Source: Bacilli bacterium (GTDB lineage Bacteria; Bacillota_I; Bacilli_A; RF39; UBA660). From it: a DNA stretch of 54,968 bases. The notes under the pieces are model-generated. The model saw nothing but the letters and a program-made list of their open reading frames with translations. It was not told the DNA's origin and ran no database searches. The translations under genes and the position numbers were made by a program. Below, piece by piece: positions 10,420 to 54,518 of this stretch (positions within the stretch are counted from its first letter, which is position 1; each line of letters starts with the position of its first letter). The stretch covers positions 1 to 54,968 of the forward strand of contig JAZSKU010000047.1 of the NCBI GenBank assembly GCA_045535005.1, read 5' to 3'.

Positions 10420-12204
10420 ATGGAAAGAGATAAAATTAAAAATTTTTGTATTATTGCACATATAGATCATGGAAAGAGTACGCTAGCTGATAGAATACTT
10501 GATATTTGTGGTGCTGTAACTGAAAGAGAAAAGAAAGATCAAATACTAGATTCTATGGATTTAGAACGTGAACGTGGTATTACTATTAAATTAAATGCAG
10601 TTGAACTTAATTATAAAGGTTATACTCTTCATTTAATTGATACTCCAGGTCATGTAGACTTTAGTTATGAGGTTTCTCGTAGTTTAGCTGCTTGTGAAGG
10701 TGCTATATTAGTTGTAGATGCTACTCAAGGTATTGAAGCACAAACGTTAGCTAACCTTTATTTAGCACTTGATGCTGATTTAAAAATTATACCAGTTATT
10801 AATAAGATAGATTTACCTAATGCTGATCCAGAAAGAGTTAAAAATGAGCTTGTAAATACTATTGGATTTAATTATGATGAAATTATTTGTTGTAGTGGTA
10901 AGACTGGTGAAGGGGTTAATGATTTACTTGATGCTGTTATTGAAAAGGTACCTAGTCCAAAGAGTGATAGTAATAAGTTAAGAGCTCTTATATTTGATAG
11001 TTATTTTGATCCTTATAAAGGTGTTGTAATTCTATTTAGAGTTATGGATGGTACTATTAAAGTAGGAGATAAAATAAGATTTATAAATAGTGATGCTGTA
11101 TATGAAGTATTAGAGTTAGGTAAACATACACCAAAAGAAATTAAGAAGAATTCTTTATCAAGTGGTGAAGTTGGGTTCTTAAGTGCATCTATTAAGAGTA
11201 TTACTGAAGTTGAAGTAGGAGATACTATATGTATTGATGGACAAAATGTGGAAGCACTTCCTGGATATAAGCCTATGAAACCTATGGTATTTAGTGGTAT
11301 TTATCCAATTGATAGTTCTAAATATAATCAACTTAAAGAGGCTTTACTTAAACTTAAACTTAGTGATGCATCTTTAATATTTGAACCTGAAACAAGTATT
11401 GCTCTTGGGTTTGGATTTAGATGTGGTTTCTTAGGGTTATTACATATGGAAATAATTCAAGAAAGAATTGAAAGAGAATTTGGTATTGATATTATTGCTA
11501 CTTCTCCTTCTGTTGTTTATGAAGTTATTATGAGTGATGGCAGTGTTGTGATGATTGATTCACCAAGTAAAATGCCTGAACAAAATTATATATCTAAAGT
11601 ACTTGAACCATATGTTAGAGCAAATATTTATGTACCTAGTGAATATGTAGGTGCGATTATGGAATTATGCCAAGATAAGCGTGGTATATATAAGAATATG
11701 TCTTATATAGATGAAACTCGTGTAAATATTACATATGAGATGCCTTTAAGTGAAATTGTATATGATTTCTTTGATAAACTTAAGAGTTATACTAAAGGTT
11801 ATGCATCTTTTGATTATGAATTTATTGGTAATAATGAAAGTAAATTAGTTAAGATGGATATATTATTAAACGGAGATATTGTTGATGCTCTTAGTATAAT
11901 TGTACATAAAGATTATGCTTATAAAAGAGGTAGGGTAATTTGTGAGAACTTAAAGAAAATTATACCTAGACAAATGTTTCAAGTTCCTATTCAAGCTTGT
12001 ATTGGATCTAAAGTTATTGCTCGTGAAGATATAAGTGCGATGAAGAAAAATGTACTTGCTAAATGTTATGGTGGAGATGTTTCTCGTAAACGTAAACTTT
12101 TAGAAAAACAAAAAGAAGGTAAGAAGAGAATGAAACAAGTAGGTAGTGTATCTATACCTCAAGAAGCATTCTTAACTATTTTAAGTACAGATAGTCATGA
12201 ATAA
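10420..12204 (+). CDS. lepA: Elongation factor 4 (LepA)
   Basis: [26 protein letters not shown] GTPase motifs. Characteristic C-terminus [18 protein letters not shown]. Confidence 0.95.
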
Positions 12205-14351: not shown

Positions 14352-15116
14352 ATGGAAAAAATATTCATTATGATTTTAATTACTGTACTTGGAGCGGTTT
14401 TAGGAAGTTTTTTAGGATGTATGGGATATAGAATACCAAACAAAATAAAAACTTCTTATCCAAGTAGTTTTTGCCCTCATTGTAAGAAATCATTAAAATG
14501 GTATATGAATATTCCAATTGTATCTTATATTGTTTTAAAAGGTAAATGTGCTTATTGTAAAAAACCAATTAGCTTTATTTACTTTTTTGTTGAAATAGCG
14601 TGTGCTTTATTATTCTTATGTAATTATTTAATGTTTGATTTTACATTTGAATTTTTTGTTTCTACAATTCTTACATGTGCGTTAATTGTAACTATAGTTA
14701 GTGATTTTCTATATTTTTATATATCGGATAGAGTACTTATTTTTTCTGGTATTGCGCTTATAATAACATTATTTTCTTTCTTAGAATTTAACGATGCGAT
14801 ATTTTATATTATAAGTGGAGCTGCTATGTTTTTAGTTATGCTTGGAATTAAGTTTGCTGGAAACATTATGTTTAAAAGAGAATCTTTAGGAGATGGGGAT
14901 ATTAAATTAATGGGAATAATTGGACTTTCTTCTGGAATTATATATTCTTTAGTTAGTTTATCTATAGCATCTTTTATTGGGCTTTTCTTTTCATTAATTG
15001 TATCTGCTAAAAATAAAGAGGGTATTATTCCTTTTGGACCGTTTCTACTTATGGGAGCATTAATTACTTTATATTTTAAAGATCTTATATCTCCTTTTAT
15101 AGATATGTTATATTAG
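14352..15116 (+). CDS. Prepilin peptidase (A24 family, PilD/ComC type)
   Basis: N-terminal CPHC...CAYC zinc motif. Polytopic membrane protein. GDGDIKLM catalytic Asp motif. Confidence 0.85.
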   Translation: MEKIFIMILITVLGAVLGSFLGCMGYRIPNKIKTSYPSSFCPHCKKSLKWYMNIPIVSYIVLKGKCAYCKKPISFIYFFVEIACALLFLCNYLMFDFTFEFFVSTILTCALIVTIVSDFLYFYISDRVLIFSGIALIITLFSFLEFNDAIFYIISGAAMFLVMLGIKFAGNIMFKRESLGDGDIKLMGIIGLSSGIIYSLVSLSIASFIGLFFSLIVSAKNKEGIIPFGPFLLMGALITLYFKDLISPFIDMLY

Positions 15117-48531: not shown

Positions 48532-49806
48532 TTTGTTTGCTAAAACATATATATCTTTACTACTCATGAATAGAAGTACTGCGTTTTCATATTGTAATAG
48601 TTTTTCTGGTTCATCCATACCAATGTGTTCTCCATTAGTTAGATGATTTATAATCCATGATGCATCTACATCTTCATAACCAACTTCAATTCTATCTTCA
48701 CCGATATCTAATACATAAGCTTTATCTGCTAAGTTTAGAGCATCAGCAAATTCTTTATAGAAGTATTTAACTCTTGATTTAGTATGTGCTTTAAATAAAG
48801 CAATTACTTTTCTATCAGGATATTTCTTTTTAGCAGCTTCAATTGTTACTTTTACTTCTGTTGGGTGATGAGCATAGTCATCAATTAGAATATTTGTTTT
48901 GAATTTTTCTTCGATGAATCTTCTTTTTGCATGTTCTATTTTAGTTATTTGAGTTTTTAATTCTTCTTTATCAATTCCTTCTAAGTAGCATACTGTAATA
49001 ACTGCTAAAACATTTAATAATAAGTGATCTCCTACAAAAGGGAATGTATAAGTATCATAATATTCTCCTTTGATATATACATCTGCGATTGTTTCTTCAC
49101 CATTTAACTTAACATTTTTAATAACTACATCATTATTATCATTAAATCCATAATACATTAATTCTTTATCAGTAGTTATTTTTCTACAGTTTTCATCATC
49201 ACCACACATAATAACTGCTTTTCTAGTTCTATTTACGTAATCTTGATAAGCATCCATTATATCATCTAAATCTTTATAATAGTCAGTGTGATCTAATTCT
49301 ATATTAGTTACTACTGCATAATATGGACTGTATGCTAAGAAGTGACGTTTAAATTCGCATGCTTCTAAGGCGAAATAATCATTTCCTTTTTTAGCGTATC
49401 CAGTTCCATCTCCGATAAGATAATTAACTCCGATATTTTGTAAAACTTTACTCATCATAGTTGTAGTAGTAGTTTTACCATGACAACCTGAAATTCCAAT
49501 TAATTTTGTTTCATTTGTTATTTCAGCTATCATTTCTTGATAAGTATATATTTTAAGTCCAAGTTCTTTAGCTCTTTTAACTTCTTCGTGTTCATCATTA
49601 AATGCATTTCCTTGAACTACGATCATACCTTCTTTAATGTTATCTTTATTAAATGTTGTAAATTCTATTCCTTTTTCTACTAATCCTATTTCAGTAAAGA
49701 AGTGGTCTGGTTTATCACTACCAGTTACTTTATATCCTAAATCATGCATAATTTGAGCTAGTGAACTCATACCGCTTCCTTTAATTCCTATAAAATAATA
49801 AATCAT
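48511..49806 (-). CDS. murC: UDP-N-acetylmuramate--L-alanine ligase
   Basis: IYYFIGIKGSGMSSLAQIM, GISGCHGKTTTTTM P-loop, DDYAHHPTE. Confidence 0.95.
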   Translation of the reverse strand: MIYYFIGIKGSGMSSLAQIMHDLGYKVTGSDKPDHFFTEIGLVEKGIEFTTFNKDNIKEGMIVVQGNAFNDEHEEVKRAKELGLKIYTYQEMIAEITNETKLIGISGCHGKTTTTTMMSKVLQNIGVNYLIGDGTGYAKKGNDYFALEACEFKRHFLAYSPYYAVVTNIELDHTDYYKDLDDIMDAYQDYVNRTRKAVIMCGDDENCRKITTDKELMYYGFNDNNDVVIKNVKLNGEETIADVYIKGEYYDTYTFPFVGDHLLLNVLAVITVCYLEGIDKEELKTQITKIEHAKRRFIEEKFKTNILIDDYAHHPTEVKVTIEAAKKKYPDRKVIALFKAHTKSRVKYFYKEFADALNLADKAYVLDIGEDRIEVGYEDVDASWIINHLTNGEHIGMDEPEKLLQYENAVLLFMSSKDIYVLANKYKELTK

Positions 49807-49927
49807 TTAAATCACCTGGTATTAATTATACTATAGTTTTTCCTTAAATAGTAGGGAAGTTTACATATTTTACATAGTTTATTTTTAATAAAAATGTGAT
49901 ATAATAACGCACTGAGAGGGTGATAAT

Positions 49928-50323
49928 GTGAAAAGTGATAGTATATTTGTTGCTGATATTAAAAAATGTACTTCTTATGATACAACTAATTTATTTTGTT
50001 GTGAGGAATATATAAATGGTGAGTTAGTTGGTAGAAGTGGTTTTGGATATATTACTCATGAAGGTGAAGTAATTAAGAAAGATGCTATATTAATTAATTT
50101 AAAGAATGGCGGTTATGTAGATATTGATTCTTTAAATGGAGTTGTTGATGTTGTTAAAACATTAAAAGATATGAGAAGACGTGGATTTGTTACTGGTGGT
50201 AAGATTATGAGTACTTCTCCATCTAGAGTAGGTAGTGTATATGTATGTACTGATTCATTAAGACCATATAATTCTAAAGAAAAAGAAGTATCTATATTAC
50301 AACTTAAAAGAGATAGAAAGTAA
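49928..50323 (+). CDS. Hypothetical protein (131 aa)
   Basis: TGATATAAT extended -10. GAGAGGGTGA RBS before a GTG start. A terminator follows. Confidence 0.5.
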   Translation: MKSDSIFVADIKKCTSYDTTNLFCCEEYINGELVGRSGFGYITHEGEVIKKDAILINLKNGGYVDIDSLNGVVDVVKTLKDMRRRGFVTGGKIMSTSPSRVGSVYVCTDSLRPYNSKEKEVSILQLKRDRK

Positions 50324-50350
50324 AAAGACTAATCTTCATTAGTCTTTTTT
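50322..50350. terminator. Bidirectional terminator
   Basis: AGACTAAT/ATTAGTCT stem flanked by A- and T-runs. Confidence 0.7.
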
Positions 50351-50985
50351 CTTAGGCTTAAAATACTATTTTGTTTAGCATAGTTAGATATAGCAGTGAA
50401 GTTTTCATCATATCCATATCTATTTTGACCAAATTGTAACCACATACCACTCCAAGTTCCTTCAGTTTGTAGTAATTTTTGTACTTTCGAATCCATGAAT
50501 GTAGTATTTCCATCTTGTTTATTTAAATCAACACAATGTTCTTCATCATATATTTTACTTTGTAAGTCACATTCTAATTTATCACAGTAGAATGCAAATT
50601 TAGCTTCCATTGTTTCTTTAGCATCAAATTCTAATATAAGAGCTTTTATTTCTTCTTTAGAAAGTAGTCCTGATAATACTTCTTCTATAGCTTCGTGTCC
50701 CATTCTTTCTTTAGTTTCTTTATCTATTTGGAATAGAGTTAAGTCTCCGATTAGTATTTCTTCTAATTCATGTACTGCAAGCATAAATAATACTTTTCTA
50801 GTATCTATTTCATATTTATATTCACTTTGCATTGCAATTGCTAGCATTTGAACTCCAAATATATGTTCTGCAACACTTTCTAATCTCTCTCTTTGAACTC
50901 TCCAGTCTTTCCAACCAGTTCTAATAACATCTTTTAATTTATTACATAATACATAATATCTAATTACATTTTCTTCTCTTGACAT
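50329..50985 (-). CDS. HD-domain phosphohydrolase (YfbR-like 5'-nucleotidase type)
   Basis: ESVAEHIFGV and AVHELEEILIGDL (H...HD...D pattern). Confidence 0.7.
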   Translation of the reverse strand: MSREENVIRYYVLCNKLKDVIRTGWKDWRVQRERLESVAEHIFGVQMLAIAMQSEYKYEIDTRKVLFMLAVHELEEILIGDLTLFQIDKETKERMGHEAIEEVLSGLLSKEEIKALILEFDAKETMEAKFAFYCDKLECDLQSKIYDEEHCVDLNKQDGNTTFMDSKVQKLLQTEGTWSGMWLQFGQNRYGYDENFTAISNYAKQNSILSLRKKTNED

Positions 50986-51097
50986 AATATCTCCTTAAAT
51001 TTAGTTTTTATTATAACATATAATTATATGATTTAAAGTATTAATTGATTAATTTAATGTTTTATGGTATAATATGCACGAATTTAAGGGGTGTAAT

Positions 51098-51907
51098 ATG
51101 AGTAATATAAGGAAGAGTGATATAGATTTTAGTAGACTTACTTTATTAAGTAATGAGGGTTCTAATGGTACTATATATACTGATGGAGTAACTTGTTATA
51201 AATTACTTGATAAAATGTATCCAGATGAAGTAACTGACTTATATTATAAGTTATGTGAAATGGAAGGTATTAATATAGATGGTGTTATATTACCAGAAGA
51301 CTTTATTATTGCTGATAATAGATTTGTTGGATACTCAATGCCTTTTTTTAAGAATTCTATGTCTATAAGTGATAAATATTTTACTAGATATTTAGATACT
51401 GGTAGTTTATTTAGTGATTTAAATAAAGCATCTTCAATACTTAGAAAGATTCATGAAAGTGGTATTGTATGCCAAGATATTAGTTTTGAAAATATATTAG
51501 TTGATGTTAATGGAAATGTTATGTTTTGTGATATGGATGCTTGTAAATATGATCATCATAATAGTCAATATATTTCATATATGTTAAAAAGATTTATGTG
51601 TGACTATAGAAGACAAGCGTTTATTCCAAACTCTAATACTGATAGAATATCTATGATGATATCAATGTATTATTTAATATTTGCTCTTGAAATACAAAAA
51701 GTTTCTAGAAAAAGCTTCTTATCTATGTCTGATAAATTAGATACTATATATGATTCAGTAGGTATTGCTAATAGATTAATTGATAGAAATAATAAAATGG
51801 GTTATATACCTTATTTAGATGAAATTATATCTTTAAATGATGATGTTATTATAGATAGATGTGAAGAAAAACAAAAAGAATTTAGAAGAAGATTAATATT
51901 AAAATAA
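51098..51907 (+). CDS. Protein-kinase-like fold protein (atypical), paralog of the ORF at 18575
   Basis: NEGSNGTIY Gly-loop-like, CYKLLDK, GIVCQDISFENILV catalytic-loop-like, FCDMD (DFG-like). Start set to the ATG at 51098 after AAGGGG. Confidence 0.5.
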   Translation: MSNIRKSDIDFSRLTLLSNEGSNGTIYTDGVTCYKLLDKMYPDEVTDLYYKLCEMEGINIDGVILPEDFIIADNRFVGYSMPFFKNSMSISDKYFTRYLDTGSLFSDLNKASSILRKIHESGIVCQDISFENILVDVNGNVMFCDMDACKYDHHNSQYISYMLKRFMCDYRRQAFIPNSNTDRISMMISMYYLIFALEIQKVSRKSFLSMSDKLDTIYDSVGIANRLIDRNNKMGYIPYLDEIISLNDDVIIDRCEEKQKEFRRRLILK

Positions 51908-51933
51908 AAAAGAGTTTAATAAACTCTTTTTTT
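51906..51933 (+). terminator. Rho-independent terminator
   Basis: AGAGTTT/AAACTCT stem plus a 7-T run. Confidence 0.7.
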
Positions 51934-51966
51934 ATGTTATATTTTATATGATAGGGAAGTGTGAAT

Positions 51967-52941
51967 ATGAAATTGGAAGATAGAATATTAGAAGAAAATA
52001 ATGGAGATGTATTTTTTACTAAAGCAATATATGATTATTTTGTAAGAGACTTAAATATGAGTGAAAGTGATGCTTTACCTTTATTTGATAAAGTATCTAG
52101 TGATAAATTAATATATAATGATTTTAGTAAATATGTTATTCAAAATACATTTGATTTTGATACTACTTTAAGTATTAACGGAGTAACTGCTAAAATGATT
52201 CATGAAGAGAATCCTGATTTATGTGCTCTTGATGTATATTTAAAATTGATTGATATGAATGATAAAGCAAATGATAGTATTGATTTAGATGCTGTTATTA
52301 ATGATGTGTTTGAAAAAATACTTAATATGGAAGAAGAAGAAACTACTTGTATTAGTGATGAAGTAGGTACTAATCTAAGTGATAAAGAATTATTTTATGT
52401 TTATAATGGAGTAGTAAATAAGCTTAAAAAAGAGCAAGTGTTTTTAGATTTTATTGATAAAGGTGTTGCTGGTCTTCCATTTAATATTCATTTTAAAAGA
52501 GGGACTTTTTTAACTATTAAATTAAGTGAAAAAAGATATAATGGTAAATATGGTAAAGGAAGTATATTTTCTAATATAATTGACTTTAATTTATGTGGTA
52601 ATAATGCATGTGTATCTTCATTTATGGAAGTATGTGTTGATCCTACTATTAAAGAAAGAGGTAAACTTGGTATTTCTATTCCTTTTGTTATGACAGAAGA
52701 TGAGTTAAAGAATTTAAATGATTGTTTAGCTAAAGTATCTACAATAAATAATATAGCTGAAGAAGAATATATTAAGTTATCTATTCCTGAAAAATTAAGA
52801 TATGTTGACTTATATATTAATTCTAAACATTTTTATATTAATTCTTTAGATAGTATTTTATTTGAAATAGCTACATGTATTAAATCTGATATAGTTACTA
52901 AAACTAATACAGAAGCTTATAAAGATTTATTTATGAAATAG
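51967..52941 (+). CDS. Hypothetical protein (324 aa)
   Basis: AGGGAAG RBS. No motif recognised. Confidence 0.5.
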   Translation: MKLEDRILEENNGDVFFTKAIYDYFVRDLNMSESDALPLFDKVSSDKLIYNDFSKYVIQNTFDFDTTLSINGVTAKMIHEENPDLCALDVYLKLIDMNDKANDSIDLDAVINDVFEKILNMEEEETTCISDEVGTNLSDKELFYVYNGVVNKLKKEQVFLDFIDKGVAGLPFNIHFKRGTFLTIKLSEKRYNGKYGKGSIFSNIIDFNLCGNNACVSSFMEVCVDPTIKERGKLGISIPFVMTEDELKNLNDCLAKVSTINNIAEEEYIKLSIPEKLRYVDLYINSKHFYINSLDSILFEIATCIKSDIVTKTNTEAYKDLFMK

Positions 52942-52963
52942 ATTATGTTATTTAGGTGAACCT

Positions 52964-53488
52964 ATGGCTACATATGAATATAATGATTTATTTTTAAAGT
53001 GTCAGAATACTGGTAAATATCACGTGTTTACTTTTGATATTGTTGGATCTAGAAATATGGATAAAAGGACTAGGTTAGATGCGCATTATAAATCTATTAA
53101 GATGATCACTATGATTTATGATGAGATAAGAAGAATAGAGGATATTACTTCTAAAAAGATACTTGTATTTGAAGATGATTTTGTTCATATGGATGAAAAA
53201 TATGAAGGCTTTGGATTTAAAAAAGAACCATTTATATTTGGTGATATGGTTGGGTTTACCGTATATAGAGATTCGATTGATAATGATACTGTTATTTCTA
53301 TATATAATGAAGTAAAAAGATTATTAAATATTAATTTTGATTTTCATGTTAATGATGGATATTATGAAACTAATAATTATGAAGAGGGTGGCACTTTATA
53401 TTTTAGAGGTTATGCTATAGATTTAATATCTAACTTACATAAGGAAGCAAATAAGTCACTTAGGATGCAATTAAAAAAACAATCATGA
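52964..53488 (+). CDS. Hypothetical protein with a nucleotidyl-cyclase/SatD-like motif pattern (174 aa)
   Basis: VFTFDIVGSRNM and FIFGDMVGFTVY resemble the two metal-Asp strands of the class III cyclase / SatD fold. AGGTGA RBS. A terminator follows. Confidence 0.45.
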   Translation: MATYEYNDLFLKCQNTGKYHVFTFDIVGSRNMDKRTRLDAHYKSIKMITMIYDEIRRIEDITSKKILVFEDDFVHMDEKYEGFGFKKEPFIFGDMVGFTVYRDSIDNDTVISIYNEVKRLLNINFDFHVNDGYYETNNYEEGGTLYFRGYAIDLISNLHKEANKSLRMQLKKQS

Positions 53489-53502
53489 ATTTGATTGTTT
53501 TT
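53474..53502 (+). terminator. Rho-independent terminator
   Basis: ACAATCA/TGATTGT stem plus a T-run. Confidence 0.7.
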
Positions 53503-53612
53503 ATGTGTTTTCAAATTTTACATATATTTTTGTTGTTAGAAATAAAATTATTCTTATAGGAATATTTTTATTTTGGTTGATAAATTTTATCTGATTATTG
53601 AATTATGGTAAT

Positions 53613-53641
53613 TTGTATTTATTTTTGTGTTTAATTATAAT
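53613..53641 (+). promoter_or_regulatory. Sigma-A promoter of mini-ORF 1
   Basis: TTGTAT, 17 nt, TATAAT. Confidence 0.6.
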
Positions 53642-53706
53642 TCTTTTGGAACGTTTATAAGTGTCTACCTATATTTCTTTTATAAAAAAAGAAAGGAGGT
53701 AATTTT

Positions 53707-53814
53707 ATGAATAATAAAGTATTTATTATCTTTCTTTTCAGGTATACTTTATTCATTCTAATAACATTTACTTTACTAGTAACTGAAATAAAAAAAGACA
53801 CTTACCATAGGTAA
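53707..53814 (+). CDS. 35-aa hydrophobic peptide, type I toxin-like (MNNKVFIIFLFRYTLFILITFTLLVTEIKKDTYHR)
   Basis: Strong RBS GAAAGGAGGTAATTTTATG. Single predicted TM helix with a charged C-terminal tail. Convergent antisense promoter and terminator. Confidence 0.55.
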   Translation: MNNKVFIIFLFRYTLFILITFTLLVTEIKKDTYHR

Positions 53815-53865
53815 ATGTCACCATAGATATAGGTGGACATTTACTTTCGAATAAACGTTCCACTT
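53790..53865 (-). ncRNA. Predicted cis-antisense sRNA 1 (candidate antitoxin), ~76 nt
   Basis: Minus-strand promoter TTGAAA (53900-53895), 17 nt, TGT-TATTAT (53877-53872). Hairpin GACATTTACC/GGTAAGTGTC followed by 7 U. Overlaps the last codons and 3' UTR of mini-ORF 1. Confidence 0.45.
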
Positions 53866-54024
53866 AAATAAATAATAACATAAATATTATTAAGTTTCAA
53901 TATTTTATAATTTTAAGTATTTTTAAATTTTACTTATGTTTATGTTTTTTAAAATATAAATTTTTCTATAGGAATAATTTCGTTTTGGTTGATAAATTTT
54001 ATCTGATTATTGAATTATGGTAAT

Positions 54025-54053
54025 TTGTATTTATTTTTGTATTTATTTATAAT
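54025..54053 (+). promoter_or_regulatory. Sigma-A promoter of mini-ORF 2
   Basis: TTGTAT, 17 nt, TATAAT. Confidence 0.6.
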
Positions 54054-54117
54054 TCTTTTGGAACGTTTATAAGTGTCTACCTATGTTTCTTTTATAAAAA
54101 AGAAAGGAGGTAATTTT

Positions 54118-54225
54118 ATGAATAATAAAGTATTTATTCTATGTATACTAAGATATACTTTATATATTCTTGTAACAACATCTATTCTTATTATAGAAAT
54201 TAAAAAAGACACTTACCGTAGGTAA
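54118..54225 (+). CDS. 35-aa hydrophobic peptide, type I toxin-like (MNNKVFILCILRYTLYILVTTSILIIEIKKDTYRR)
   Basis: Same RBS and architecture as mini-ORF 1. 23 of 35 residues are identical, and the differences cluster in the hydrophobic core. Confidence 0.55.
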   Translation: MNNKVFILCILRYTLYILVTTSILIIEIKKDTYRR

Positions 54226-54277
54226 ATGTCCAAACCAAATATAGGTGGACATTTACTTTCGAATAAACGTTCCACTT
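54202..54277 (-). ncRNA. Predicted cis-antisense sRNA 2 (candidate antitoxin), ~76 nt
   Basis: Minus-strand promoter TTGATA (54312-54307), 17 nt, TGT-TATTAT (54289-54284). Hairpin GACATTTACC/GGTAAGTGTC plus 6 U. Confidence 0.45.
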
Positions 54278-54312
54278 AAATAAATAATAACATAAATATT
54301 AGTTTATATCAA

Positions 54313-54343
54313 TAAAAAAAGAACCATAGGTTCTTATTTTTTT
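54313..54343. terminator. Bidirectional terminator (3' of tRNA-Leu on the minus strand, and 3' of repeat unit 2 on the plus strand)
   Basis: AGAACC/GGTTCT stem flanked by a 7-A run and a T-run. Confidence 0.7.
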
Positions 54344-54345
54344 AG

Positions 54346-54430
54346 TGGTGCAGGTGAAGGGACTTGAACCCCCAAGGATTGCTCCGCTAGATCCTAAGTC
54401 TAGTGCGTTTGCCAATTTCGCCACACCTGC
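54346..54430 (-). tRNA. tRNA-Leu (anticodon TAG)
   Basis: 85-nt cloverleaf. Acceptor GCAGGTG/CACCTGC. Anticodon stem CTAGA/TCTAG with loop CTTAGGA. Long variable arm. T-loop TTCAAGT. Encoded CCA. Confidence 0.85.
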
Positions 54431-54441
54431 ATTTTATTAAG

Positions 54442-54518
54442 TGGTGGACCTTGTAGGACTCGAACCTACAACCGCCCGGTTATGAGCCGGATGCTCTAAC
54501 CAATTGAGCTAAAGGTCC
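54442..54518 (-). tRNA. tRNA with a CAT anticodon (elongator Met or lysidine-dependent Ile2; not the initiator)
   Basis: 77-nt cloverleaf. Acceptor GGACCTT/AAGGTCC with a paired 1:72 position. D-arm GCTC/GAGC. Anticodon loop CTCATAA. T-arm GTAGG-TTCGAGT-CCTAC. Encoded CCA. The GGACCTTTAGCTCA start resembles Firmicute tRNA-Ile2 as I recall it. Confidence 0.85.

Follow-up and report, generated by a model that had tools for sequence, protein, structure and literature searches.

Tandem candidate type I toxin-antitoxin modules with predicted antisense RNA genes beside tRNA-Leu in an uncultured gut member of the Bacilli

Introduction

Contig JAZSKU010000047.1 of the Bacilli bacterium assembly GCA_045535005.1 (RF39 lineage) was analyzed over its full length of 54,968 nt, hereafter the window. 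Between a 174-amino-acid (aa) open reading frame (ORF) that ends at 53488 and a tRNA-Leu(tag) gene, two direct-repeat units of about 412 bp (53499-53902 and 53911-54314) fill a gap that, as an earlier note on this DNA had remarked, lacks long ORFs: from 53488 to the tRNA genes, none reaches 60 aa. The note read the units as type I toxin-antitoxin-like modules encoding 35-aa hydrophobic peptides. The locus therefore raises the question of what the two units encode, and whether a toxin gene paired with an antisense RNA is part of it.

The toxin-antitoxin reading is supported by the present analysis, and a predicted antisense RNA gene in each unit supplies the piece that it had lacked. We estimate a probability of about 0.65 that the units are paralogous type I toxin-antitoxin modules, two in tandem. 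They belong to an uncultured, low-GC gut bacterium within the Bacilli, and they probably represent a hitherto undescribed family within an established class of systems, in a lineage for which none was found described; a literature search returned no paper tying type I systems to RF39. The analysis establishes the sequence anatomy, the predicted promoters and terminators, the controlled structure predictions, the coding constraint, and the recurrence in relatives, whereas the production of both RNAs, the toxicity of the peptide, and the antisense mode of action are inferred.

Results

Organization of the repeat units

The tandem duplication described in the earlier note was borne out by an alignment of the copies and by three families of direct repeats spaced 411-412 nt apart, which are 90% (53499-53689 and 53911-54101), 81% (53685-53819 and 54096-54230), and 93% (53827-53902 and 54239-54314) identical. 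The 11-mer GGAACGTTTAT, a key element of the units, occurs four times in the window, always within the modules (0.76 occurrences expected).

The TTGTAT-17-TATAAT promoter claimed for each copy was read in the sequence, as was a near-perfect ribosome-binding site, GAAAGGAGGTAATTTTATG in both copies, with GAAAGGAGG placed 7 nt ahead of the ATG in each unit. The two 35-aa peptides quoted in the note are encoded exactly (Table 1). The sense promoters were missed by a consensus scan because TTGTAT fits only three of the six positions of the -35 consensus. Their position is kept in homologous modules from other genomes, with TTGTAT-N14-TGGTATAAT at locus L083, TTGTAA-17-TATAAT at L038, and an extended -10 element at L041. 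Upstream of the -35 element, a 40-nt block is shared by the copies and is also invariant in six contigs from other samples (L001-L006, from the Logan collection). It includes, in module 1, a 6-1-6 palindrome (GATAAATTTTATC, 53579-53591), and it may act as an operator or UP element or constitute a second promoter (TTGATA, 18 nt, AATTAT).

The best hydrophobic windows of both peptides score 2.3-2.55 on the Kyte-Doolittle scale, and the hydrophobic body is followed by a charged, aromatic C-terminus, EIKKDTY(H/R)R. In size (type I toxins have fewer than about 60-70 aa) and in shape the peptides resemble such toxins (PMC2887945, PMC6563280). A polar or aromatic C-terminus and tandem intergenic repeats also served as search criteria for Fozo et al. 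2010 (PMC2887945). Minus-strand ORFs in or opposite the modules (31, 20, 48, and 43 aa) were considered and rejected, as they have no Shine-Dalgarno (SD) sequence and differ in length between the copies.

Table 1. Positions of the features of the two modules and of the adjoining tRNA genes in the window.
Feature	Position	Strand	Description
Block upstream of -35, modules 1 / 2	53573-53612 / 53985-54024	plus	40 nt, identical in both copies
Sense promoter 1	53613-53641 (-35, 53613-53618; -10, 53636-53641)	plus	TTGTAT, 17 nt, TATAAT; predicted start G53648
Sense promoter 2	54025-54053 (-35, 54025-54030; -10, 54048-54053)	plus	TTGTAT, 17 nt, TATAAT; predicted start G54060
5' strand of 5'-3' helix, mRNA 1	53646-53677	plus	GGAACGUUUAUAAGUGUCUACCUAUAU; nearly the same sequence as the antisense RNA 5' end
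Anti-SD hairpin, module 1	53676-53699	plus	UCUUUU (53676-53681) predicted to pair with the SD sequence AGGAGG (53694-53699)
ORF 1	53707-53814	plus	35 aa, MNNKVFIIFLFRYTLFILITFTLLVTEIKKDTYHR; candidate membrane toxin
3' strand of 5'-3' helix, mRNA 1	53823-53862	plus	Also the main predicted antisense target
Predicted antisense RNA 1	53865-53790	minus	~77 nt; -24.1 kcal/mol, z -5.0
Antisense promoter 1	53900-53872	minus	TTGAAA, 17 nt, TGT-TATTAT, extended -10; 10 of 12 consensus positions, TG present
5' strand of 5'-3' helix, mRNA 2	54058-54089	plus	-37.3 kcal/mol, z -9.7
ORF 2	54118-54225	plus	35 aa, MNNKVFILCILRYTLYILVTTSILIIEIKKDTYRR; allele of single-copy loci in other samples
3' strand of 5'-3' helix, mRNA 2	54235-54274	plus	Also a predicted antisense target
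Predicted antisense RNA 2	54277-54200	minus	~78 nt; terminator hairpin 54231-54207; -25.0 kcal/mol, z -4.3
Antisense promoter 2	54312-54284	minus	TTGATA, 17 nt, TGT-TATTAT, extended -10; found by consensus scan
Hairpin terminator, bidirectional, between module 2 and tRNA-Leu	54319-54335	both	Terminator scan, seen on each strand
tRNA-Leu(tag) and tRNA-Met	54346-54430, 54442-54518	minus	Convergent with the modules

Conservation between the copies and coding constraint

From the -35 element to the ATG, the alignment of the copies gave the three substitutions and one 1-nt indel that had been counted before. The stretch downstream of the ORF is indeed identical in both copies, with a length of 63 nt (53827-53889 and 54239-54301) rather than the 61 nt first reported. 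Among the 35 residues of the peptide, 23 are identical and 12 differ; 11 of the differences lie in the hydrophobic core, and the remaining one is H34R.

At the nucleotide level the ORFs differ at 25 of 105 nt, with a proportion of synonymous differences (pS) of 0.50 and of nonsynonymous differences (pN) of 0.17, and the membrane cores, about 40% diverged, reach a pS of 0.69 and a pN of 0.30. When sequences were simulated with an equal number of random changes, only 0.8% stayed open and equally hydrophobic. By these measures the 35-aa peptide is under purifying selection, and the divergence of the ORFs implies either copies of considerable age or a core acquired from a diverged paralogue.

The core, where synonymous change is near saturation, stands against near-invariant parts on both sides: the 5' untranslated region (UTR), the first seven and the last nine codons (synonymous sites included in both), and the 3' UTR. 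The earlier statement that the RNA is more constrained than the peptide thus held. The near-invariant segments map onto the elements predicted below, namely the 5'-3' helix, the anti-SD hairpin, and the antisense gene. We attribute their near-invariance to RNA constraints on both strands, possibly joined by gene conversion, and the constraint on both strands would account for the inverted pattern of conservation.

A predicted antisense RNA gene in each unit

On its minus strand, each unit also holds a predicted antisense RNA gene, equipped with a separate promoter and terminator, which the earlier note had left unspecified. Antisense RNA 1 is predicted to fold into two hairpins, a 5' stem-loop (53863-53833) and a terminator (53819-53797) with a U-run behind it, which are separated by a single-stranded linker. 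In both units the stem of this intrinsic terminator covers the last codons of the ORF and the U-run extends into it, and the 1.4 kb examined include four terminator-like sites where 0.4 would be expected. The predicted RNA is fully complementary to the mRNA over the final 25 nt of the ORF (its last seven codons plus the stop) as well as the 3' UTR.

G-U pairs occur in the 5' stem-loop, and the complementary plus strand folds to no better than -8.7 kcal/mol, compared with about -24 kcal/mol for the antisense strand; a stability confined to the minus strand is a sign of selection acting on the antisense transcript. The 63-nt invariant block corresponds to the 5' half of the antisense gene and its -10 region, and the first 40 nt are identical between the two antisense RNAs. 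The same arrangement of promoter and terminator was found in the related modules L041, L083, and L038.

Predicted structure of the sense mRNA

The sense mRNA is predicted to begin with GGAACG and to be at least about 215 nt long. Folded from its predicted start, mRNA 1 reaches -60.2 kcal/mol (z -7.1) and contains a long-range helix that joins its 5' and 3' ends, in which GGAACGUUUAUAAGUGUCUACCUAUAU pairs with AUAUAGGUGGACAUUUAC...AUAAACGUUCC over 30 bp (-37.3 kcal/mol, z -9.9 against shuffled partners). Such a helix was predicted in eight modules from five lineages, with 28-32 bp, z scores from -6.6 to -10, and an internal loop of 7-9 nt on the 3' strand. The z score of the whole mRNA was likewise low in the related modules (-7.5 for L041 and -8.6 for L038). 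Compared with 209 small hydrophobic ORFs that carry an SD sequence, the modules are extreme, at -42 to -46 kcal/mol against a median of -17 kcal/mol.

An anti-SD hairpin was also found in the RNAalifold consensus of eight modules, where 87.5% of its cells are paired. In the joint alignment of the modules, the consensus inner helix together with the anti-SD hairpin showed 90% pairing, compared with 42-58% when the partners were slid, and six pairs had changed on both sides; the observed values were reached by zero or one of 500 shuffles. As long as the 3' element is unavailable, being either blocked or still unsynthesized, the predicted partners of the 5' segment are the AGGUA of the SD sequence and the start codon. 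Under these shuffling, sliding, and covariation controls, the candidate toxin mRNA is predicted to limit its own translation by SD sequestration and 5'-3' pairing, both of which are general features of type I toxin mRNAs (PMC8594479).

Proposed mode of action

The antisense RNA and the mRNA share a near-identical start (GGAACGUUUAU...), and the 3' strand of the mRNA helix is at the same time the antisense target, for which reason the antisense RNA and the mRNA 5' end would have to compete. We propose that in the growing transcript the 5' segment and the anti-SD hairpin would cover the SD sequence and the start codon, so that translation could not start during transcription. In the finished mRNA, the 5' segment would pair with the 3' element in the 30-bp helix. 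The antisense RNA, with nearly the same 5' sequence as the mRNA, would compete for the 3' element and form a duplex of about 77 bp, which would probably be cut by RNase III, and its binding may also free the 5' segment to cover the start site again. Given duplex formation and this re-covering, the peptide would be made only upon depletion of the short antisense RNA. The antisense RNA might thus act through decay, through translation, or through both.

A more specific version may be put forward, although we regard it as doubtful. The modules might form a lineage-restricted family based on 5'-end mimicry, in which the shared start and a single 3' element make up a three-state RNA switch rather than a device of decay alone: the mRNA would be nascent and closed, folded end to end, or antisense-bound and closed again. 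The tandem paralogues would then share one antitoxin specificity, because the first 40 antisense nt are identical. If true, this would suggest a diversification of toxins under one shared antidote, and the modules could be part of a strain-variable tRNA-Leu islet that stabilizes itself or aborts phage infection.

The proposed modules leave the understanding of type I systems unchanged and bring no new principle. With a predicted antisense RNA of 77 nt, a 35-aa peptide, and an mRNA predicted to be closed end to end, they would make a compact case for studying how 3'-binding antitoxins control translation.

The locus in other samples

Logan contigs that carry the neighboring 174-aa gene show the same locus in other samples; it is present in runs SRR32918208, SRR32918218, SRR32918222, SRR32918232, SRR24653818, and SRR31764242. 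Three of them (L002, L003, and L006) have a single module with the copy-2 peptide, and three others (L001, L004, and L005) break inside the repeat; the flanks of the single-copy alleles are mosaic. These contigs bear on whether the tandem pair is an assembly artefact that joins two alleles of a population, or else a functionless, decaying A+T-rich repeat with chance features. The single-copy contigs with mosaic flanks and the breaks inside the repeat would fit such an artefact, as would the fact that the relatives are all metagenome bins, which may hold for the window contig as well, and the background frequency of promoter-like matches. However, the units are joined by a unique spacer (53903-53980) that is about 30% diverged from the spacer preceding copy 1, tandem pairs of a related module arise independently in six other contigs, and the terminators, folds, and 5'-3' helices lie far beyond the distributions of shuffled sequences. 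We therefore find an artefact or a chance repeat barely credible.

Two of the single-copy contigs (L002 and L003) carry a G-to-A change in the 3' element, at the equivalent of 53855 and 54267. In the antisense stem-loop the change turns a C-G pair into U-G and keeps the pair, and in the mRNA 5'-3' helix it introduces a C-A mismatch (-31.5 compared with -37.3 kcal/mol).

Related modules in gut Bacilli

Relatives were collected through the neighboring Mur ligase gene, which gave 80 loci from bins of uncultured gut Bacilli or "Tenericutes" (for example, Acholeplasma sp. CAG:878 and Ca. Faecisoma), the nearest ligase being 77-78% identical at the protein level. Distant modules were found by architecture scans and nhmmer. 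The module architecture recurs in metagenome-assembled genomes of gut Bacilli as the L041, L083, L038, and L047 types, with other sequences and compensatory changes.

In L041, an extended -10 element precedes the 5' end UUUGGAAUAC, the SD sequence GGGAGG, and a 30-aa ORF (MKKRVFIIKILNNIILILFLLLLLVVEIKK); the antisense terminator lies at the stop codon, and the 5'-3' helix has a z score of -7.5. The N-terminal motif M-x-x-K/R-V-F-I-I and the C-terminal motif V-x-E-I-K-K are common to this peptide and those of the window, with synonymous differences in their codons. The L083 module (14738-15031, minus strand) directly adjoins tRNA-Leu(tag) in the convergent orientation seen in the window, and has the -35 element TTGTAT and the 5' end UUUUAGGAACAUUU. 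Local alignment of L083 gave a z score of 4.6 with the window, 10.5 with L041, and 5.3 with L038.

In L038, as in L047, a 22-aa hydrophobic frame stands behind an overlapping ORF with a strong SD sequence. The hydrophobic frame of this type varies only by I/V, M/I, I/L, K/R, and N/D exchanges and by synonymous changes, and the overlapping frame shows C/Y, C/S, and H/L changes. The L038-type locus of other samples holds two full tandem modules, a module and a remnant, one module, or a partly deleted module. Tandem copies, a copy number that varies among strains, remnants, and a variable islet beside a tRNA gene are typical behavior of a type I family.

The overlapping ORF of the L038 type was itself observed at six loci (L038, 12226-12328; L047, 11563-11662; L239; L244; L246; and L249), where a strong SD sequence and an ATG open a Cys-rich frame of 28-29 aa, such as MFARNIERINSFGINCCICNDCVLHYHCS, which overlaps in another frame the conserved 22-aa hydrophobic ORF starting at TTG. 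This ORF may correspond to a mok-like leader, or it may result from a frameshift that became fixed. In L038, part of an antisense promoter also remains (11942-12079) upstream of the full module.

Evidence against a toxin and alternative readings

Several observations weigh against the toxin-antitoxin reading. Hydrophobic residues are a near-default product of T-rich coding strands. Promoter-like hexamers are common in this DNA of 77% A+T, with 14 found and 12.5 expected, and the covariation comes from only five diverged lineages. In nucleotide sequence the window resembles the other lineages weakly, the link to L083 alone being significant, and constrained folding showed no clear shift of SD accessibility between the free and the antisense-bound mRNA (0.24-0.38). 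In the L038 type, the strong SD sequence and the ATG belong to a frame that differs from the hydrophobic one. The L083 ORF has an in-frame TAA at codon 7 (MSKKDF, stop, ILFLIIIILLLIALLFVILK, stop), L039 (7451-7678) keeps the antisense gene with only the last toxin codons, and in L251-L253 (1567-1852) the SD sequence and the region of the ORF start are deleted. An ORF that is broken while its flanks are kept had been named beforehand as refuting evidence, and these three cases amount to it in part.

The L083 stop may reflect a recent pseudogene, a population variant, or a consensus error of the bin; L234 and L235, which cover this locus in other samples, end before the module. We read the broken ORFs as the usual decay of chromosomal toxin genes, because intact hydrophobic ORFs under coding constraint persist in the window, L041, and the L038-type loci.

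The broken ORFs also lead to the alternative of a purely RNA element, that is, convergent sense and antisense small RNAs that would function by virtue of their structure, the embedded ORF being untranslated or no longer translated. It would agree with RNA parts that are far better conserved than the ORF core, with strong structure z scores and some covariation, and with relatives that keep the helices and the antisense gene despite a stop, a loss, or a partial deletion of the ORF. What makes it quite improbable is, first, that a near-consensus SD sequence at optimal spacing to the ATG is kept in every lineage as the target of a conserved anti-SD hairpin, an arrangement that makes sense only if translation must be held back. 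In addition, pN is lower than pS, hydrophobicity has been preserved through the divergence of the core, and the peptide motifs common to L041 have been maintained through synonymous changes.

A translated peptide need not be a toxin. The ORF could encode a small membrane protein with an ordinary role, such as a transporter regulator or a stress peptide, whose mRNA is tuned by a cis-antisense RNA and which has no part in toxicity, addiction, or defense. The anatomy would be the same, with toxicity as the inferred element of the toxin-antitoxin reading, and some of the similar candidates of Fozo et al. were not toxic when overproduced (PMC2887945). However, a multilayer block of translation, here made up of the predicted anti-SD hairpin, 5'-3' helix, and antisense RNA, is typical of toxic products (PMC8594479). 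Moreover, tRNA-Leu(tag) and the ligase gene lie between 0.6 and 7.4 kb apart in related genomes (loci L007-L024, with L083 included), and the modules of the window therefore sit in a variable islet. Presence and copy number that vary among close strains, frequent decay, and such a location would be unusual for a housekeeping small protein, and we consider an ordinary role unlikely.

Searches of sequence collections

No match for any peptide was found in Pfam or NCBIfam at E-values up to 10, nor in PADLOC or PHROGs. Rfam returned only tRNAs for the whole window at gathering thresholds, sub-threshold noise (such as the unrelated mir-4887 and MicF) for the region at E-values up to 10, and nothing for L041. 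The absence of resemblance to Fst, BsrG, and TxpA stated in the earlier note is consistent with these searches of Pfam, NCBIfam, and Rfam, which matched no family. Against phage and plasmid records, blastn and tblastn gave either nothing or spurious A+T-rich matches, and the peptides of the window had no tblastn match at E-values up to 10.

Exact look-ups among 15 billion predicted proteins and 153 billion gene positions did not find the peptides. When 1.84 billion representative proteins were searched exhaustively with HMMER, the profile built from the two peptides retrieved only two proteins, both repetitive and unrelated. Being absent from predicted proteomes, the family is invisible to protein-based surveys. 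Among pattern scans, a transition-tolerant pattern of the antisense stem-loop had zero matches in a genome scan. Viral sequences, scanned once with the peptide and twice with patterns of architecture or motifs, gave no matches or random ones, and a metagenome scan for the combined promoter, 5' end, SD, and 3' end pattern gave 27 random matches and no module. The family was found through its RNA architecture alone, which gives a model searchable across related genomes.

Comparison with known type I systems

On the sequence comparisons made, the modules fall outside every catalogued toxin and antitoxin RNA family searched, and their layout is not that of Fst either. The nearest layout is that of the Gram-positive families whose antisense RNA is placed at the 3' side of the toxin gene and reaches into the ORF end (PMC8594479). 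In bsrG/SR4, txpA/RatA, bsrE/SR5, and yonT/SR6 of Bacillus subtilis and in SprG/SprF of Staphylococcus aureus, as in the modules, the genes are convergent and the antisense RNA covers the ORF end and the 3' UTR (PMC8594479). The bsrG, txpA, and SprG group also shares a small hydrophobic peptide with a charged C-terminus. The closest mechanistic precedent for the mode of action proposed here is bsrG/SR4, where binding of SR4 at the 3' end of the bsrG mRNA has two effects, the promotion of decay and a longer, tighter SD-sequestering helix (PMC3834814). In contrast to this shared layout, no similarity of peptide or RNA sequence was found to TxpA/RatA, BsrE-G-H, or SprG/SprF. The modules also differ from the bsrG and txpA group in a much shorter predicted antisense RNA (~77 nt), in their occurrence in an uncultured gut lineage at a non-prophage locus, and in a 3' target that would also be the partner of the mRNA's own 5' end, with near-identical competitors. 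We know of no such competition between an antisense RNA and a near-identical mRNA 5' end for bsrG or txpA.

In the Fst and SprA1 systems, translation and stability are under the control of intramolecular 5' structures. Like the modules, Fst/RNAII (par of pAD1) and SprA1/SprA1as are Gram-positive systems that are transcribed convergently, encode a peptide of about 30 aa, and often occur on chromosomes as tandem copies (PMC2887945). The profile of the Fst family was not matched, as no Pfam or NCBIfam model, any Fst model there included, was found at E-values up to 10. Moreover, the antisense RNAs of Fst and SprA1 do not overlap the ORF and interact at dispersed repeats outside the overlap (PMC8594479), whereas those predicted for the modules overlap the last 25 nt of the ORF and pair within the overlap.

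A 5'-3' end helix that closes the full-length mRNA, together with SD sequestration, is known from hok/sok of plasmid R1 and aapA1/IsoA1 of Helicobacter pylori (PMC8594479), and the overlapping upstream ORF of the L038 type recalls the mok gene of hok/sok. However, the antisense RNA of these systems targets the 5' portion of the mRNA, which overlaps it completely (PMC8594479), while in the window modules it would act at the 3' end. In hok/sok the pairing involves the 5' leader and mok region, and a leader ORF is coupled to that of the toxin. These two systems are proteobacterial and show no sequence similarity to the modules, and the modules of the window have no leader ORF.

Additionally, the type I modules of Clostridioides difficile (CD2517.1/RCd8, CD0956.2/RCd10, and those with short toxins of 34-35 aa) have convergent overlapping genes (PMC6563280). 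The toxins of this species were likewise unannotated, 30-56 aa long, with a hydrophobic N-terminal part and a Lys-rich tail, and without similarity to other families (PMC6563280). The C. difficile modules are tied to prophages or CRISPR arrays, whereas those of the window are chromosomal and lie beside tRNA genes.

Neighborhood of the modules

The contig is chromosomal and has a G+C content of about 26%. A prophage or plasmid setting was rejected because the upstream neighbors include a threonyl-tRNA synthetase, the Mur ligase, and an HD hydrolase. The variable islet of the window, from tRNA-Leu(tag) to the Mur ligase gene, spans 4.5 kb (49806-54346) and comprises uncharacterized genes of 131, 277, 326, and 174 aa, the HD hydrolase gene, and the two modules. 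The 277-aa protein (51074-51907) has a weak, short PADLOC match over residues ~120-168 to the kinase-type defense models mad6 and PD-T4-6 (E-values from 5e-5 to 4e-3). The 326-aa and 174-aa proteins had no matches in PADLOC or PHROGs, and their Logan homologues have no Pfam match on record.

The bidirectional hairpin between module 2 and the tRNA-Leu gene is predicted to be, probably, the end of both mRNA 2 and the tRNA transcript. At the other end of the locus, an A+T-rich palindrome of 17+17 nt followed by a U-run lies downstream of the 174-aa gene (53539-53574; -9.4 kcal/mol, z -2.9) and may serve as a weak terminator. It was rejected as a conserved terminator, as its z score of -2.9 in copy 1 falls to 0 in copy 2.

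An unrelated conserved membrane protein of 35-45 aa was also observed in the nearest species, with a Lys-rich N-terminus followed by ...W[VLIA]MLxAMxxSxFT.... It was located at L008 5361, L009 3806, L010 5415, L011 2749, L012 1316, L013 2055, L014 2683, L017 5526, L020 248, L022 266, and L024 5038, and its distance to the Mur ligase gene varies among these species.

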